55,099 nucleotides of DNA, taken from a virus (taxonomy: Duplodnaviria; Caudoviricetes). Under the pieces are notes generated by a model. The model saw nothing but the letters and a program-made list of their open reading frames with translations. It did no database searches and was not told the origin of the DNA. The position numbers were made by a program, and so were the translations under genes. Positions 9,869 to 30,410 of the stretch are shown here, one piece after another; positions within the stretch are counted from its first letter, which is position 1; each line of letters opens with the position of its first letter. The stretch spans positions 1-55,099 of the IMG/VR virus record IMGVR_UViG_3300033475_000029. One strand, given 5' to 3'.

Positions 9869-10222
9869 TCATGACTGGCGCCCCGCCTTCTCTTCGATCC
9901 ACCAGCGCAGTTCCGTGGTGTTGAAAAACACCGGCTTTTCGAGCTTGCGCGCCTCGTCGATTTCGCCCCGCGTCCCGGTGCTCATCATCCAGTTGCCTTG
10001 CACGAGCACGGCGTCGCATCGACGCAACAGCTCCAATGTCCCCTCGATCCAGACCGCATCCGGTGCGCAGTCCTGGAAGTGCCGTGTGTTCATGTGCGGA
10101 CAGAGTGCCGCCGCGCCCATGCGCCAGACTTCGAGCGCCACCGTTTCGGCGGCCCTGACGTTCTGCTCAATGAGCCAGGGCGTCGCCGCGCGGAATGGGC
10201 CGGCGATGTAGACGACCTTCAT
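9869..10222 (-). CDS. DUF4406/DUF1937-like nucleoside 2-deoxyribosyltransferase-fold protein
   Basis: VVYIAGPF...CPH...LLRRCDAV...W..S.G..GE..A.....PVF pattern. Confidence 0.8.
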   Translation of the reverse strand: MKVVYIAGPFRAATPWLIEQNVRAAETVALEVWRMGAAALCPHMNTRHFQDCAPDAVWIEGTLELLRRCDAVLVQGNWMMSTGTRGEIDEARKLEKPVFFNTTELRWWIEEKAGRQS

Positions 10223-10548
10223 CGCACGCGCTCCAGTTTCTTCGGGCGAGCGGTCTCGCGGGCCTCTTGGGCGGGAGGGATGATGACTCGGTAGACGCGG
10301 CGGTCGGCTACATGCATATCGCCAATCAGGCAGCACTTGCCGCCGAGTCGGTGACTCGGGATCGTCGTCGTCCATCCGTCATGATATTCAAGGCCGCCGC
10401 TCTTGTTCAGTCCAGGCGCGTCCGCCACGAACGCGAGCAACATCCCGCGGTGGTCGCGGTCGCACCACTTGCAGGGCTTGAGCACGATCAGGTCGCCTGC
10501 CTCCAAGCTCCCGAAGTCGGTTACGAGTTCCAAACGCTCCTCGCTCAC
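10219..10548 (-). CDS. Hypothetical protein
   Basis: GTGA/ATGA coupling. Confidence 0.55.
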   Translation of the reverse strand: MSEERLELVTDFGSLEAGDLIVLKPCKWCDRDHRGMLLAFVADAPGLNKSGGLEYHDGWTTTIPSHRLGGKCCLIGDMHVADRRVYRVIIPPAQEARETARPKKLERVR

Positions 10549-11483: not shown

Positions 11484-11969
11484 TCACGCGGGGCTCCCCG
11501 GGTACGTCGCTCCTGCACCAGGGCGGGCGTCGGCATATTCCGCGGCGTTCCGTGGGCACGAGTAGCAGGGGTTCAGCAGGCCGCACTTACACCGCCCTGC
11601 CGCCTCCAACTTCGCGTCCATCGACGTCCGCTCGGTTTCTTCCATGGTCCCCGGTGCCGCCGTGGACTCTGCGGTGAGCTCGCGAACGCGGACCTTCCCG
11701 CGCAGCTTCGCGATCACATCCTCGCAGCAGTCGCGCACGCCATCGTACGCACTGACGAGGCGACCATTTGCGTCGTTCAGGATGGCGCGCTCGGGCGCCA
11801 GCGCGAAGAACATCGCCCCGGCCCCGACGAACGGCTCGTAGTAGGTGCCGAATCTCGCCGGCATTCGGCGCAGCAATTCCGGGAGCAACTGCGTCTTGCC
11901 GCCGACCCACTTCAGGAACGGCCGCGCCATCGCTCCAGGGATCACGTCTGCAACCGCCACGGCGCTCAC
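11484..11969 (-). pseudogene. dam: Truncated Dam-family (D12) adenine methyltransferase fused to unrelated sequence
   Basis: [19 protein letters not shown] and LNDAN present; similarity ends near residue 90; no DPPY motif. Confidence 0.8.
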
Positions 11970-12740: not shown

Positions 12741-12925
12741 GTCCGCGCTCCCGTCTTCGCGGCAACCTCGACCGCCTCGTCCTCGGTGAGATATCCGCTC
12801 GCCTTCCAGTCGGCGATGAGGCTGCCCTTCGCCCAAGCCGAGACGTCACGCCACGAGTTGAGCAACGCGATGACCGCGTCGAGGTTTGACTGGCCCTTCG
12901 AAAGAACGTGCGTCCGAGCGCTCAC
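12737..12925 (-). CDS. Hypothetical protein
   Basis: GTGA-coupled at both ends. Confidence 0.5.
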   Translation of the reverse strand: MSARTHVLSKGQSNLDAVIALLNSWRDVSAWAKGSLIADWKASGYLTEDEAVEVAAKTGART

Positions 12926-13749
12926 GCGGCACCTCGGCGCGCTTCGAGTTGCGCCGCCATACGGGCGACCGCGGCGGCCTTCTCGTCCTCGGTGATCTTC
13001 ACCGGGGGTTTGTGCACATTCGCCCGCGAGGCCGACGGTGCGTCTTCGGCCGCACCTCCCGCGGGCGCGCAGTGCGCGCTTTCCCTCACGTGGATCGACG
13101 GCGCGTCGGCCTCTGGCCTCGGCACCTCCCCGCTCGGATGTTTTTGGAAAGTCTTCTCCTCGGCGAGTTCGCGCACGAGGTTCCGCACCGGCGACGCCGG
13201 CCCTTCGATCGCGCGCCGCGGGTCGAGCGGTGCAATCTCGCCCTCGATGGCCACGAAGGCCGCCGCGCACCCGGTGCGCCCCCGGCCCCAGCCCTCGAGC
13301 GGCTCTGGGCGAAGCGCGGTCTCGGGCCCGGATGCGAACGCCGCGAACAACTCCGCGAAGCGTTTGGCTTCCCATTTCATGGCCTCGTCGCCAAGCTCGC
13401 AAAGCCAGGCCCATGAGCCCATGGCACGGAGCACCGTATTGGTCAGCGGGCCGAAGTCGATGCTTGCGACGGTGTAGTCGTACCGGCGGATCGCCTCGCG
13501 GACCTTCGCCCAGGCCGCTGCGGCGCGGGCCTCGAGACTGCGAGGCGGGCGGGCGAAGGCGCGAAGCTCGGACGGCGAAGGCATGAACTTGCATTCGCGC
13601 AGCGCGCGACCGGCCGCGAAGTTGATTTCGTCCTCGGTGAGATCCTCGAGCCCGAGCTTGTAGCCGCGCGCCGCAGGCTTCGTGAGCGCGACTCGAAACG
13701 TCTCGGCCAACGTCTGCACCGTCGTCGCAATCAGTTCCACTCGCGTCAT
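12922..13749 (-). CDS. DUF6475-like replication partner (putative helicase loader or inhibitor)
   Basis: CKFMPSPSELR...AAWAKV...MGSWAWLC...KRF pattern; directly downstream of the initiator. Confidence 0.65.
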   Translation of the reverse strand: MTRVELIATTVQTLAETFRVALTKPAARGYKLGLEDLTEDEINFAAGRALRECKFMPSPSELRAFARPPRSLEARAAAAWAKVREAIRRYDYTVASIDFGPLTNTVLRAMGSWAWLCELGDEAMKWEAKRFAELFAAFASGPETALRPEPLEGWGRGRTGCAAAFVAIEGEIAPLDPRRAIEGPASPVRNLVRELAEEKTFQKHPSGEVPRPEADAPSIHVRESAHCAPAGGAAEDAPSASRANVHKPPVKITEDEKAAAVARMAAQLEARRGAA

Positions 13750-14450
13750 CGGTTCGTCTCCTCGGCCAAAAGTTCCGCCCACGCGTCGCGACCCTGCTGC
13801 GCCTTCACTGGGACCGCCGCGACCGCCGCCTGGCGCTCGTCCTCCCATCGCCGACCGTTGAGCCATGTCCCCGCGTGCGGGACGGCCTCCGGATCGCGGC
13901 GCACGAAGATCGGCACCTGCCACTCAAGAGCGGCCATGATCTCGGTCGCCAGCGCATCGCAACCGTGCCGCTGCCACATTTTCAGCGCGTGCAGCCTCGC
14001 GGCCTTGCGAGGGTACGCATCCCAGAACGCGACGAACAGCGCGCTGGCGTCCGGCTTGCTCTTACGCGTGCGCGCGACTCTTTCTGATCCGGATTGCCGA
14101 GAAGGATCCGAAGAAGAACCCGGAACCAGAGAAAGAACCGGAGGCAGACCCCCCCCTACCCCCCCAACGCTACCCGTAGCGTTTTCGTCAATGTTTTCAA
14201 CACTACCGATAGCGTTTGACGCTGATTCTTCGACGCTACGGGTAGTGTTCGTTAGTGCTTTTTGAACACTACGGGTAGCGTTTGAAATCAGCTTTTCAAC
14301 ACTACCGATAGCGTCCTCGGAAGCCTCAAACGTCGTCCAACGGTTGCCGCAGTCACAGGCGCGGCGACGCCTCATGACAAGCCCATCGGCAACGAAGCGC
14401 GTCTCGAGCACACGACCACGCTCGGCGGATTTACACGACGAGCACTTCAT
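13746..14450 (-). CDS. Phage replication initiator with N-terminal NrdR-like zinc ribbon
   Basis: N-term MKCSSC...VLETR....G..MRRRRACDCGNRWTTFE; C-term FWDAYPRK...PHAGTWLNGRRWEDE; internal iterons. Confidence 0.85.
   Translation of the reverse strand: MKCSSCKSAERGRVLETRFVADGLVMRRRRACDCGNRWTTFEASEDAIGSVEKLISNATRSVQKALTNTTRSVEESASNAIGSVENIDENATGSVGGVGGGLPPVLSLVPGSSSDPSRQSGSERVARTRKSKPDASALFVAFWDAYPRKAARLHALKMWQRHGCDALATEIMAALEWQVPIFVRRDPEAVPHAGTWLNGRRWEDERQAAVAAVPVKAQQGRDAWAELLAEETNR
14166..14315. repeat. Putative replication origin: five 18-bp palindromic iterons at a 33-bp period
   Basis: Copies start at 14166, 14199, 14232, 14265 and 14298; consensus RACRCTACSSRTAGYGTY; AT-rich spacers. 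Confidence 0.9.
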
Positions 14451-14877: not shown

Positions 14878-15212
14878 GACTCGTCTCCGTGCAGGGCGCG
14901 CGTTTCGAACTTCCCCGCGAACTCAGGCCACCCGATCTCGAGCGCCCTCGCAATGCGCGACGAGAAGCTGTTGTTGACGGCGTATTTCTCGCCAGGCGTC
15001 TTTCGGATGATCTGGCGGTACCGCGCAATCTCGACAATGAACTTCGCCGATAGCCGCGTCTCACCGGCCGCGATGAGCTCGCGCCCGATGTCAGCGAACT
15101 CGTGCAGCGCCTTCGGGTGTTCTTCGAGGAAGCGAGCGAAGCGGAGATCGATGGACTCGGCGCGAGAGTGCCCCGAGAAACCGAGGTCGGCATGCGCAAC
15201 CGAAGCGCTCAT
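14874..15212 (-). CDS. Phage hypothetical protein
   Basis: F..F.EEHP...K..VNN.F....AR...PEFAGKFETR; coupled at both ends. Confidence 0.65.
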   Translation of the reverse strand: MSASVAHADLGFSGHSRAESIDLRFARFLEEHPKALHEFADIGRELIAAGETRLSAKFIVEIARYRQIIRKTPGEKYAVNNSFSSRIARALEIGWPEFAGKFETRALHGDES

Positions 15213-15934
15213 GATGCCGCCTCCTTCCAGTTCCATACGGGACCGTCGGTCGTCTCGCAGTCGAGATAGCAGCCGTCTTTCTTCTCTGGCCGCACCCACT
15301 TCGCGAGCATCAGCACGCGATCGCCGCGCTCCCAGCGGTAGACCACGCCCTCCATTGGTTCCAGCGCTCCGTGATGGCTCTGGAGGCCGGGCAGAATGGT
15401 CATCGGGAACGCCTCGGCCGCGCCATGGAAGACGTGTGGAGTCGCGAACGCACCCGCCACGGCGCCATTGAACCGAGCGTGCGTGAGGCGCTCGTCGTTG
15501 GCATCGAATATGTCGAATGCAACGAACGGCTCGTGAGGTAGCGCGTACTTCGTTCCGTGGGCCTGTGCCAGCCACTCGCCGCAGATCCGTTGCCCTTCTT
15601 CCAGTACGACGGCAAACCGCGAAACGTTGCGCTCTACCCACCGCGCGAACATCTGGTGTTGCTCGCGGGGTGACGTGCGGGCATCCCATCCAGCTCGCAC
15701 CAGCGGGTAGATTTCGCCATTGAGCTTGCATGCGCCGACGTTTGAGCCGTCGACCTTCTCTTGGACGACGAGCCAGTCGCGCTTCGGAAGCGCCTCGGTC
15801 ATCGCCTTCGTTTGGCCTTCGTGGATGTGATGATCTCCGGGCCCGAGACGGGAGCCATGGAGGTGACCGATGGATCCGTAGCTCTTGCGCCCCATGGGCT
15901 TGATCCCGGAGACGACCGTGCCAAGCCGACTCAC
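15209..15934 (-). CDS. RNA ligase family nucleotidyltransferase
   Basis: Motif I EKVDGSN, ICGEW, FVAFDIF, EGVVYR, AKWVR. Confidence 0.85.
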   Translation of the reverse strand: MSRLGTVVSGIKPMGRKSYGSIGHLHGSRLGPGDHHIHEGQTKAMTEALPKRDWLVVQEKVDGSNVGACKLNGEIYPLVRAGWDARTSPREQHQMFARWVERNVSRFAVVLEEGQRICGEWLAQAHGTKYALPHEPFVAFDIFDANDERLTHARFNGAVAGAFATPHVFHGAAEAFPMTILPGLQSHHGALEPMEGVVYRWERGDRVLMLAKWVRPEKKDGCYLDCETTDGPVWNWKEAAS

Positions 15935-16473
15935 GGCAGCACCACCGATCGAACCGCCCACCCCGCGCCCGCAACCTGGCGCAGTACCTCGCCGAGTCCA
16001 GCGTCAGCGAGCTTGTACGCGTCTGCGACGGTTCTTGGTCGCGTCGCGCGCATCTTGGTCAGCGCGACCCAGTCTGCCGCCACAGCCCACTTCTCTTCCT
16101 TGGACCACCCGCGGAATGGGTTCTTCGGGCCGTCCTCCTGCCCGTCGAAATACCGGTGGCAGCTACGCGGCCCGTCACACAGGGGCACGCACTGCCAATC
16201 AGGCACTTTGAGAGACATACCCTTCTGCCCTGGTCCAGTCGCGACGTGAGCCGCGGTGGACGGGCCGGACTTGTGACAGTGAACGCAGGCGAGAGTTCGC
16301 ACGTACTGCACGTAAGGCGAGGCGTCCGCACGACGCTTGATCCGCTTCGGGAGCGCCCGTTTCATCCGTGAGCGAGCCAGGGGCTTGCGCGGGCCCGAGA
16401 ATGACGTGTAACGCTTCCTCCCTTGCTCGTCGTGGCTGGCCCCGCGAGAGAGGGGCGTGCGACGGAGGCTCAC
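15931..16473 (-). CDS. DUF968/Ref-like HNH-type zinc nuclease
   Basis: YVRTLACVHC...AAHV...GMSLKVPDWQCVPLC.....CH. Confidence 0.7.
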   Translation of the reverse strand: MSLRRTPLSRGASHDEQGRKRYTSFSGPRKPLARSRMKRALPKRIKRRADASPYVQYVRTLACVHCHKSGPSTAAHVATGPGQKGMSLKVPDWQCVPLCDGPRSCHRYFDGQEDGPKNPFRGWSKEEKWAVAADWVALTKMRATRPRTVADAYKLADAGLGEVLRQVAGAGWAVRSVVLP

Positions 16474-28367: not shown

Positions 28368-29375
28368 TCAGGCTGCTTGTTCTTCGGATTGCTTGGTGGG
28401 CACGCGCTTGAGCGCGAGCAGGTTGCGGCGCAGGCGTTCAATGTCGCCGGCCGCAGTCGCTTCCTTCACGGCCGCGGAGACCTTCGCGGCGATCACCGCG
28501 TCTCCGATGCGCTCCGCTTCGGCCATCACGAGGGCGGCGAGTTGCGGGACGTCCATCGACTCGCCGTCACTGAGCGCCTTGGCGAACGGCGCCCACGGGT
28601 TCTCGGGATCGAGCTCCACTTCCGCGGGCAGCGGATAGCGAGACTTTGCATCGTAAGCGGCGGTGCGCTCGAGGTAGAGCATCCGGCGCCCCGTCGTGAA
28701 GCCCTTCACGCGCGAGCCGGAGCCCTTGCCGGCGCCATCCTCGAAGGCGGCGAAACCAACGACATCGACCCAGTCCTTGAGGAGACCGGCCGCCTTGTCG
28801 TTCAGGCTCAGGTTGTAACGGTCGAAATCCTCCGTCGTCGGGCTCTTGAACGTCCGCACGATCGAATGACCGATCATGAGCACGTTCATTCCGCGTGCGG
28901 CCTGGAGGCGCTCCAACTTCGAGAGGACGACGCGCCACTGATCCAGTGCGGCGTTGGGCCCCTTCCCGTACCCGTAGGAATCGAGGCTCTTTTGGCCGTC
29001 GCGCTTGCACACGAACTGCCAGACCATCGCCTCGAAGCTGTCGACGGTGTCCATGACGAGCGTCTGAAACCCGTGCTCGTTCGCCGTCAGGTCGTCGATC
29101 ATCCCGATGACGTCCTCGTAGCTGTGCGGGATATGACCGCCGAGGCCCTCGCGAAACGGATAGCGCGCCACGGGGAGCTGCGCGGATCCTCCCTCCACGT
29201 CGCACCAGATCGGCGCGGGCGCATGAGCCGCCAGGGTGCTCTTGCCTGCGCCGTTCTGCCCGAACACGAGAGCCTTGAGCGGCTCTTTGAGCTTCCCGGG
29301 CTTGATGCCCGAGAGACGCGTTTTCGGCGGCAACGCCTTGATGGCTGATTCAGAGAGCGTGATCGTTTTCGTCAT
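28368..29375 (-). CDS. sak4: Sak4-like AAA_24 ATPase recombinase
   Basis: GQNGAGKST, DVEGG, TLVMDTVD, GYGKG, IGH, DWVDVVGF, AKSR. Confidence 0.88.
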   Translation of the reverse strand: MTKTITLSESAIKALPPKTRLSGIKPGKLKEPLKALVFGQNGAGKSTLAAHAPAPIWCDVEGGSAQLPVARYPFREGLGGHIPHSYEDVIGMIDDLTANEHGFQTLVMDTVDSFEAMVWQFVCKRDGQKSLDSYGYGKGPNAALDQWRVVLSKLERLQAARGMNVLMIGHSIVRTFKSPTTEDFDRYNLSLNDKAAGLLKDWVDVVGFAAFEDGAGKGSGSRVKGFTTGRRMLYLERTAAYDAKSRYPLPAEVELDPENPWAPFAKALSDGESMDVPQLAALVMAEAERIGDAVIAAKVSAAVKEATAAGDIERLRRNLLALKRVPTKQSEEQAA

Positions 29376-29402
29376 GGTGGCCTCTTTCGCCGTTGGGTCT
29401 GC

Positions 29403-30410
29403 TTACGCGGCCAACTCCGGGTGGACGTCGGTCAGCTTTTGGAACTTCGTGTCGTCGTCGATCGACGCGCGCCCCTCGCAAACCTCGAGGTAGCTACAGG
29501 GCCGCCCGTACGCGTGGCACGCGCTCACCGAGCGCGGCGCCAGGCCCTTGCGGCCCGTGATCTGGATGAGCTGAGCCGCCTCATGCATGTCCGCCCGTGA
29601 CGCCGCGATCTCCGCGTCGAGCCGGATCACCTCCTGGCGCTGGTAGTACGCGTCAGGCTCGGCCGTGATCGCCTCAGCGATGCGCAGCCGAAACTCTTCG
29701 ATCGTCTCGTCGTTCTCGCGCTGGTTCGCGTACAGCCGGCCGCCTTGCGTGTACTTCCGAGCTTCGACGGGCGTCGCCTTGTACGGGCGCTGCGCGAGCT
29801 TGCCGAGGACGTCGTAAATTACGCCCGCGATCTCGCCGACCTTGAGCGACGCGGCGCCGTCGAAGTACGCGCTCACCTGAGAGTCGGTGCGAAGCTTCGA
29901 CCAGTACGTCGAGCCCGGCGACAGGTCGGCCCCGCTAGTCTTGTGCTCGACGATCCAGATCGAACCGTCCGAGCGCTTGCGCACAAGCGCGTCGAGCTTG
30001 CCGGCGAGCCGCACGCCGCGGGCCTTGCGCCCGTCAGCCTTCGTCAGCGACGTCTCGAACGCACACTCGACGGCGAGCACTTCGTACTCAGCCATCGCGC
30101 CCGACCAACGGGCGTCGTAGCCCATCATGAGAACCTCGGCCTTCGCGCGCGTGGCATCGTCGAAGGTCTGCGCCGATCCGATCGCTTTCGCGATCGCCGA
30201 CAGCGCATCGGACAGGGCCATGCGCGGGTCCATTAGGCAGCCCTGGTGAGCTTTCCACCACGCCTCAAGTCCGGCGTGCATGACCGTGCCGAACTCCAGA
30301 GACTCCGAGGCGACGAGCGAGCGCCAGCCTTCGTTGTAGCGGTACTGGTGCTTCCGGATGCACTCCTGGAACGCGCGCAACCGGGAATTCGTGAGAACCA
30401 GCCGAGTCAT
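29403..30410 (-). CDS. PD-(D/E)XK (RecB/Cas4-like) exonuclease
   Basis: S.L..F..C, FGT.MH, LAGKLD, IVEHKT, Q...Y and C-terminal Cys cluster. Confidence 0.88.
   Translation of the reverse strand: MTRLVLTNSRLRAFQECIRKHQYRYNEGWRSLVASESLEFGTVMHAGLEAWWKAHQGCLMDPRMALSDALSAIAKAIGSAQTFDDATRAKAEVLMMGYDARWSGAMAEYEVLAVECAFETSLTKADGRKARGVRLAGKLDALVRKRSDGSIWIVEHKTSGADLSPGSTYWSKLRTDSQVSAYFDGAASLKVGEIAGVIYDVLGKLAQRPYKATPVEARKYTQGGRLYANQRENDETIEEFRLRIAEAITAEPDAYYQRQEVIRLDAEIAASRADMHEAAQLIQITGRKGLAPRSVSACHAYGRPCSYLEVCEGRASIDDDTKFQKLTDVHPELAA

Follow-up and report, generated by a model that had tools for sequence, protein, structure and literature searches.

What is the function of five evenly spaced 16-bp palindromes that lie inside a phage gene whose product begins with the DNA-binding zinc ribbon of NrdR, the dATP/ATP-sensing repressor of bacterial ribonucleotide reductase (RNR) genes? 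The question is raised by gene P0001 of a phage known from the complete virus record IMGVR_UViG_3300033475_000029, all 55,099 base pairs (bp) of which were analysed and are called the window here; its content of guanine and cytosine (GC) is 66%. The original prediction, made from the letters alone, took P0001 for a replication initiator in which a host repressor domain and its operator had been co-opted together for origin recognition. The observation itself was confirmed by our analysis, and the interpretation is supported. With a probability of about 0.7, profile searches and sequence comparisons point to a lambda-O-like initiator that would carry the origin in its own gene and would have co-opted both the NrdR-type ribbon and the NrdR-type operator.

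Iteron array and adjoining element inside the initiator gene

In window coordinates, the gene and the elements within it are as follows.
13746 to 14450, minus strand: initiator gene P0001, 234 amino acids (aa), ATG at 14450, product starting MKCSSC; zinc ribbon, disordered linker and initiator-type C-terminal domain
14325 to 14450, minus strand: NrdR-type zinc ribbon, codons 1-42 (Pfam, alignment to S. coelicolor and E. coli NrdR, Foldseek; predicted local distance difference test (pLDDT) score 85-92)
14299 to 14314, no strand assigned: iteron 1 in gene order, ACACTACCGATAGCGT (pattern scan)
14266 to 14281, no strand assigned: iteron 2, ACACTACGGGTAGCGT (pattern scan)
14233 to 14248, no strand assigned: iteron 3, ACGCTACGGGTAGTGT (pattern scan)
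14200 to 14215, no strand assigned: iteron 4, ACACTACCGATAGCGT (pattern scan)
14167 to 14182, no strand assigned: iteron 5, ACGCTACCCGTAGCGT (pattern scan), abutting the G-tract
14149 to 14165, no strand assigned: G-tract, C8-TA-C7 on the plus strand and G7-TA-G8 on the coding strand, encoding GGVGGG; conserved in the relatives L154 and L006
14078 to 14148, no strand assigned: pyrimidine-rich, strand-skewed tract of lower GC content with GGATCC and CCGGATC (GATC at 14086 and 14105); conserved in L154 and L006
13836 to 14042, minus strand: helical C-terminal initiator/replisome-organizer domain, codons 137-205 (PHROG, BFVD and cultured-phage matches; pLDDT 94-98)

Five copies of ACRCTANNNNTAGYGT start at 14167, 14200, 14233, 14266 and 14299, with a start-to-start spacing of 33 bp each time. 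These iterons are 16-bp palindromes of the form ACRCTA-N4-TAGYGT, neighbours being separated by a spacer of 17 bp. At up to one mismatch the pattern has no other occurrence in the window, where shuffled sequences led to an expectation of 0.08 and reached five in 0 of 100 shuffles. Position 4 is C and position 13 is G in all five copies, and the four central bases (CCCG, CCGA or CGGG) include none or one A/T. The array is located in a GC trough of 0.45-0.50, compared with 0.66 for the genome.

The G-tract next to iteron 5 contains the sole runs of at least seven G or C in the genome and fits a G-quadruplex motif on the coding strand. The tract at 14078-14148 is a candidate unwinding or host-factor element; GATC occurs at 320 sites genome-wide, and the two sites of this tract are notable solely because they are conserved. 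Taken together, an array of inverted-repeat iterons is found in the linker-coding part of an initiator gene, beside a tract that can be distorted, as in the lambda O gene.

Domain structure of the initiator protein

A longer frame starting with TTG (14576) overlaps the upstream gene; homologues of P0001 begin at MxC. The predicted NrdR-type zinc ribbon at the N-terminus was borne out by Pfam family PF22811 (Zn_ribbon_NrdR), which matches residues 1-42 over its full 42 model positions (E value 5.5e-11; 42.7 bits against a cut-off of 27.2), and by a Foldseek search of the PDB, in which the top 13 chains are all NrdR, with a root mean square deviation of 0.9-1.2 Å over 44-46 residues. The key residues of the ribbon are C3, C6, C32 and C34 together with R13, E16, R18, R27-30 and R37. 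Of the proposed NrdR cysteine pattern, the first pair stood as CxxC (C3, C6) and the second did not: it is CxC (C32-D33-C34), with one alignment gap relative to the CxxC of NrdR. The ATP-cone is absent as stated earlier, since a Pfam search gave no match to PF03477 in P0001, and the NCBIfam equivalog for NrdR (TIGR00244) covers positions 1-53 of 147 only, with 39.1 bits against a cut-off of 124.65.

An AlphaFold2 model built from 32 family sequences comprises a three-stranded ribbon (pLDDT 85-92), a stretch predicted to be disordered at residues 60-99 (pLDDT below 50) and a helical domain at residues 137-205 (pLDDT 94-98). The disordered linker contains five in-frame 11-aa repeats and is encoded by the palindrome array. 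The C-terminal part, earlier assigned to the phage-initiator type, agrees with this assignment in its matches to PHROG 9474 'replication initiation protein' (1.4e-15), 9327 'primosomal protein' (3.4e-15) and 270 (3.8e-14). Its domain is common to 78 cultured-phage records annotated as initiator, primosomal protein I, RepA-like or replisome organizer, and its structural matches in BFVD are DnaD, replisome-organizer, RepA-like and DUF1376 models. Foldseek gave no PDB match for this helical domain, and the N-terminal domain of lambda O (PF04492, Phage_rep_O) was not matched in P0001 at E values up to 1.

Correspondence of the iterons with NrdR operators

The manner in which NrdR contacts its boxes is described in excerpts of a study on the S. 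coelicolor protein (PMC9110341). According to these excerpts, two ribbons pair up on each box, the phosphate backbone is contacted by R12, R26-29 and R37, and specificity comes from D15 and R17, which read conserved G:C pairs nine positions apart; the exchange R17A abolishes binding, inversion of the conserved pairs lowers it about 50-fold, and the bound DNA is kinked at central AT steps, which stack weakly. By alignment, the contact set becomes R13, R27-30, R37 and E16/R18 in P0001, the sole change being the conservative one from D15 to E16, and the invariant C and G at positions 4 and 13 of the iterons correspond to the G:C pairs that the same excerpts report as critical. Four NrdRs bind box pairs with spacers of 14-17 bp according to excerpts of PMC12051234, and the phage spacer of 17 bp falls within this tolerated range.

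The exact iteron-pair pattern (two copies of ACRCTA-N4-TAGYGT with 17 N between them) was scanned over 185,579 genomes, one per species, and 24 loci were obtained, where by our own arithmetic about 0.03 would be expected under uniform base composition. Neighbouring genes were assigned at 18 of these. At no fewer than 12 of the 24 loci, the gene that follows directly is nrdD, nrdR or one for an RNR large subunit; four of these genes were verified by Pfam and eight by a shared N-terminal sequence judged by eye. In detail, eight loci directly precede genes of about 790 aa with mutually matching N-termini (the one checked, L172, encodes NrdD with an ATP-cone at 653 bits), two precede small genes resembling the C-terminus of NrdD (L166 checked), one box pair precedes the nrdR gene (L162, encoding a ribbon with an ATP-cone) and another an RNR large-subunit gene (L163). 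Six further checked loci adjoin unrelated genes (CYTH, gpsA-like, RNase H, cysS, methyltransferase-like and ClpB-like). As at least half of the loci precede nrd genes, the phage iterons have the spacing of functioning NrdR operators and agree with them in their outer 12 positions. The claim that the repeats resemble NrdR boxes thus holds for these 12 positions, including the two critical G:C pairs. It had been based on a consensus string that was not found in the literature searched, and the operator pattern was used as direct evidence instead.

An altered core had been proposed as well, and it was found: the centre contains at least three A/T in 42 of the 48 retrieved cellular boxes, which come from genomes of low GC content (36-51%), and none or one in the phage iterons. 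The 57-mer of PMC12176259 (layout 5+16+15+16+5) contains E. coli nrdAB box 2, GTACTACAGGTAGTCT, which has a GC-rich centre, so that such a centre is not unknown among real boxes; by our own count this box is identical to the iteron at 14266 at 11 of 16 positions.

These likenesses could also mean that the palindromes are mainly sites of host NrdR, through which the phage would read or titrate the sensor of deoxynucleoside triphosphates (dNTPs); the ribbon protein would then compete with NrdR or join it as a dominant-negative partner and would not be the origin binder. In favour of this, the iterons agree with real NrdR operators at the outer 12 positions and in their 17-bp spacer, and mixed dimers are conceivable because the minimal unit of NrdR is a dimer joined by its zinc ribbons, as stated in the literature cited above. 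We consider this explanation improbable, however, as the gene in which the boxes lie encodes an initiator domain along with the DNA-binding domain that fits them, which is the logic of lambda O, and as the iteron centres are GC-rich, unlike those of the 42 cellular boxes.

Two by-products of the scans are recorded here. At four of the loci (L161, L169, L177 and L181), all from Saccharibacteria, non-RNR genes (CYTH, cysS, gpsA-like, RNase H) adjoin perfect NrdR box pairs spaced by 17 bp, which suggests a wider NrdR regulon in this lineage. The iteron-pair scan of IMG/VR gave three loci, intergenic repeats in low-GC, podovirus-like contigs, which were rejected as unrelated because no zinc-ribbon gene is nearby:
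L003 11826 to 11874: paired CACTATAGGTAG-type repeats that fit the iteron pattern by chance
L004 14747 to 14795: the same
L005 8704 to 8752: the same
Presumably, these repeats resemble promoters of single-subunit phage RNA polymerases of the SP6/T7 type.

Conservation in relatives and selection on the DNA

The closest comparison is provided by L154, a metagenome contig of 1250 bp that encodes a homologue of 225 aa with the same ribbon and an identity of about 41-45%. Its linker DNA has palindromes of the iteron type at spacings of 33, 33 and 44 bp. Since 44 cannot be divided by three, the last palindrome is shifted out of the original frame and yields PLPVVV, not A-T-R-S-V. The motif is kept and the peptide is changed, which shows that the repeats are under selection at the DNA level. 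Loss of the palindromes beneath a kept amino-acid repeat had been named beforehand as a result that would speak against the original prediction; L154 shows the reverse.

Identity between the phage and L154 is 74% for nucleotides and 57% for third codon positions in the ribbon segment, 52% and 42% in the C-terminal domain segment, and 81% and 86% in the G-tract/GGATC zone; outside this zone, third-position identity is 42-58%. A far more divergent family member from IMG/VR, L006, has a ribbon without the RRRR motif. In a three-way alignment its CTA-N4-TAG palindrome abuts G6-TTT-G6, followed by a TCTTCT...GGATC tract, and this palindrome, too, is read in the alternative frame (peptide SLPLAL). 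Right after the last palindrome, a tract of the form G6-8 / T(A/T) / G6-8 is thus found at the following positions.
Phage 14149 to 14165: G6-8 / T(A/T) / G6-8 tract
L154 514 to 533: the same
L006 2884 to 2899: the same

Upstream of the C-terminal domain, the peptide GGxGG is present in 26 of the 38 homologues with a ribbon, as against 17 of the other 221, both being rough classes defined by regular expression. Upstream of its single palindrome, L006 has short repeats of the CACCGG/CACGGG type with a spacing of about 10 bp (2805-2862).

Judged by sequence comparison, this pattern of conservation is the signature of a cis-acting element laid over a tolerant linker, as in lambda. That the 11-residue repeat linker should instead serve the protein, with the DNA palindromes as a by-product, would account for five 11-aa repeats being in frame. 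It would leave unexplained why all the units form palindromes of 16 bp. A disordered state is predicted for the linker, and the frame changes in L154 and L006, with the DNA motif retained, contradict this reading; we therefore hardly give it credence.

Distribution of ribbon-bearing initiators

A word-indexed protein search starting from P0001 found one other full-length ribbon protein, P0002. The other matches covered the C-terminal domain only, joined to HTH_36, PF04492 lambda-O, DUF6291, DUF1376 or MarR N-terminal domains; P0028 and P0074 are examples in which PF04492 is combined with the C-terminal domain common to P0001. An exhaustive profile search found 11,657 proteins at E values up to 0.001, and among the best 150 the ribbon occurs together with this C-terminal domain in about 30-40 clusters. 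The family thus numbers about 30-40 metagenomic clusters, and its putative origin has a conserved core of palindrome, G-tract and GGATC tract; 26 of the 32 aligned members match PF22811. None of the 78 matching cultured-phage records covers at least 80% of P0001, and in our literature search no paper was found that describes an NrdR-type phage initiator or Zn_ribbon_NrdR (PF22811) in such a role.

Contigs were searched in several ways. With P0001 alone as query, viral contigs gave one locus, a match to the C-terminal domain only. An alignment with C-terminal patterns matched 595 stretches in viral contigs, of which 554 were confirmed and the best 80 kept; among these 80, a regular expression for the zinc ribbon found L006 and L007 only. 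The back-translated pattern RRRxxCxCGxRW matched 68 stretches, seven of them with an upstream CxxC; three encode genuine small ribbon proteins and none an initiator. Searches with the family alignment matched 206 stretches in genome contigs, with none confirmed, and 437 in metagenome contigs, with seven confirmed, L154 being the only full initiator.

Among the aligned members, linker peptides of the types A[TI][GR]S[VA] or LP[VA][VA] were taken as a proxy for the iterons, as they arise only from CTA-N4-TAG palindromes. Of 11 members with an E-T-R recognition loop, 9 have such peptides, compared with 2 of the 21 whose loop differs; several of the latter repeat PTNG-like peptides instead. The proxy was a post hoc choice, and relatedness is a confounder. 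At the level of these sequences, co-variation of iteron type and recognition loop is suggestive.

The ribbon also occurs in other settings. In P0250 and L156 (380-1063), a similar ribbon with linker repeats is located on a different C-terminal domain, which indicates module shuffling. L156 contains two perfect 27-bp direct repeats 35 bp apart and an inverted partial copy. Stand-alone NrdR-type (CxC) zinc-ribbon proteins of 55-122 aa are encoded at these loci of phage and metagenome contigs:
L155/L157 3001 to 3246
L158 208 to 375
L159 2117 to 2323
L160 3001 to 3207
L113, L128 and L121
Comparable phage proteins are named 'NrdR-like N-terminal domain' in BFVD. An anti-NrdR role of the small stand-alone ribbons is one possibility.

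Genome context and neighbouring genes

Nearly all genes of the phage are on the minus strand, and a profile search found an integrase gene. The best reading is that the phage is temperate and that P0001 is its replication initiator. Profile searches gave no matches among the phage proteins to a DnaB-type helicase (DnaB_C), a DnaC/IstB-type loader or a family-A polymerase (PolA), and replication of the phage is shown to depend on the host replisome. No tRNA genes are present in the genome. The only named homologue of the terminase is from a Limnocylindria metagenome-assembled genome (45% identity), and the initiator is present in neither of the two phages whose terminase is 62% identical. Two genes flank the initiator.
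12922 to 13749, minus strand: DUF6475 gene (Pfam and PHROG), its start overlapping the initiator stop codon
14476 to 14877, minus strand: stand-alone DnaA domain-IV-like gene (Pfam Bac_DnaA_C, 53 bits; TIGR00362 matched at C-terminal positions only), directly upstream of the initiator

The DUF6475 protein may be a candidate helicase-recruiting partner. A search with this family gave 17 proteins including the query, all of them unnamed. L154 has a DUF6475 gene at the equivalent position after the initiator (927-1250; 50% identity to the phage copy), and it was the sole match when 80 loci of the C-terminal domain and seven metagenome loci were searched by tblastn for such a partner. A complex prediction for the C-terminal domain of the initiator and the DUF6475 protein scored 0.28 against a mark of 0.32 and weighs neither way.

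The DnaA domain-IV-like protein ends in a coiled-coil-like tail. Its gene sits between an upstream gene and the initiator in the phage and is not at that position in L154, whose small upstream gene is 81% identical to the phage counterpart. The consensus of the DnaA box had no match in the phage genome at up to one mismatch.

Elsewhere, the gene at 11484-11969 (minus strand) matches the Dam-like DNA methyltransferase family phrog_56 over its first 90 or so residues, and the frame stops at 161 aa; this gene may be split or truncated. Further minus-strand genes encode a Sak4-like annealing protein with exonuclease (28368-30410), an RNA-ligase-like protein (15209-15961) and a nucleoside 2-deoxyribosyltransferase-like protein (9869-10375).

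Proposed mechanism

For the lambda-O-like initiator, a mechanism can be outlined by analogy with NrdR and lambda. Pairs of zinc ribbons would bind each 16-bp palindrome, with R18 and E16 reading the invariant C4 and G13 base pairs and R13, R27-30 and R37 gripping the phosphate backbone, as expected from NrdR. The iteron spacing of 33 bp corresponds to about three helical turns, and occupancy of the array would lead to a bent, O-some-like nucleoprotein complex. This complex would stress the adjoining element (G7-TA-G8, the pyrimidine-rich stretch and GGATC; 14078-14165), where the duplex would open, and the helical C-terminal domain would recruit the host helicase, probably via the translationally coupled DUF6475 protein. 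DNA-binding domain and operator type were most likely captured together from a bacterial NrdR; the ATP-cone would have been lost and the AT-rich centre of the box would have become GC-rich.

Several observations weigh against this proposal. NrdR kinks its DNA at weakly stacking central AT steps and the iteron centres are GC-rich, so the geometry of binding may differ. The second zinc-ligand pair is CxC instead of the CxxC of NrdR, although the fold still superposes at about 1 Å. The co-variation of iteron and loop rests on the peptide proxy, the DNA of relatives being that of L154 and L006, and members with the NrdR-like D-S-R loop seem to bear other linker repeats, of the PTNG type. No NrdR-box-like sites were found near phage zinc-ribbon genes of the stand-alone type in nine loci, L156 included, which means that the ribbon domain does not always travel with this operator. 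Finally, the cumulative GC skew has no extremum at 14.1 kb.

The lack of an origin signal in the GC skew would fit an array that acts as an autoregulatory operator or roadblock. The protein would then be a fusion of a transcription regulator with a replisome-organizer domain, and the true origin would be found elsewhere. The zinc ribbon of NrdR is a repressor domain, and intragenic sites could block transcription of their own gene. Yet the five phased sites adjoin a strand-skewed, lower-GC element kept at synonymous positions, the genome has no further array of the iteron motif, and the C-terminal domain is that of annotated initiators; this explanation appears to us slightly less probable still than a role as host NrdR sites.

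With the palindromes seen as the origin, it is conceivable, but rather unlikely, that this origin and the dNTP-sensing circuit of the host share one recognition code. Host NrdR loaded with dATP/ATP could then bind neighbouring iteron pairs, as the 17-bp spacer lies in the permitted window, and origin firing could be gated by the dNTP state of the host. In the other direction, the phage ribbon, which has no ATP-cone, could bind to the nrd operators of the host or dimerize with NrdR itself and thereby shift RNR expression during infection.

If correct, the proposal would be a clear case in which a transcription-factor domain and its operator were jointly taken over as the origin-recognition module of a replicon, and the NrdR zinc ribbon, which has until now been studied in the RNR repressor only, would gain a role in DNA replication. 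As the predicted contacts (R18, E16) and bases (C4, G13) are named, the proposal can be put to a direct test with the reagents and structures available for NrdR, and it raises the question of whether phages couple origin firing to the dNTP sensor of the host or disturb that sensor.

Comparison with known systems

Compared with NrdR (S. coelicolor, 7p37/7p3f; E. coli, 9fxk and 9gex), the N-terminal zinc ribbon of P0001 is homologous and superposable, and the phosphate-contacting arginines and the specificity arginine are retained. The sites are likewise 16-bp palindromes with equal outer half-sites, C4/G13 pairs and a permitted spacer. In contrast to the nucleotide-sensing repressor, P0001 is devoid of the ATP-cone, and with it of nucleotide sensing and of the cone-mediated tetramer; it has CxC as its second ligand pair and E16 in place of D15, and it carries the C-terminal domain of an initiator. 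The phage sites number five, not two, have a GC-rich box centre and are located within a gene beside an origin-like element, not on an nrd promoter.

With the replisome organizers and the DnaD-like and RepA-like initiators of Pseudomonas, Xanthomonas, Arthrobacter and Gordonia phages (PHROG 9474, 9327 and 270), P0001 has the helical C-terminal domain in common, whereas their N-terminal domains are of the helix-turn-helix, DUF1376, DUF6291 or lambda-O type.

In lambda O, a flexible linker joins the DNA-binding domain at the N-terminus to a C-terminal domain for recruitment. The inverted-repeat iterons of ori-lambda are located within the linker-coding part of the O gene, beside an easily distorted tract; the partner gene follows immediately downstream, and the helicase and polymerase of the host are needed. 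P0001 differs in that its N-terminal domain is not PF04492, its downstream partner is DUF6475 instead of a lambda-P-like protein, and the flanking element is a G-tract with a pyrimidine/GGATC tract, not a plain AT-rich region. It matches lambda O in the order of domains, the intragenic iterons, the adjacent tract, the downstream partner gene and the dependence on the host.

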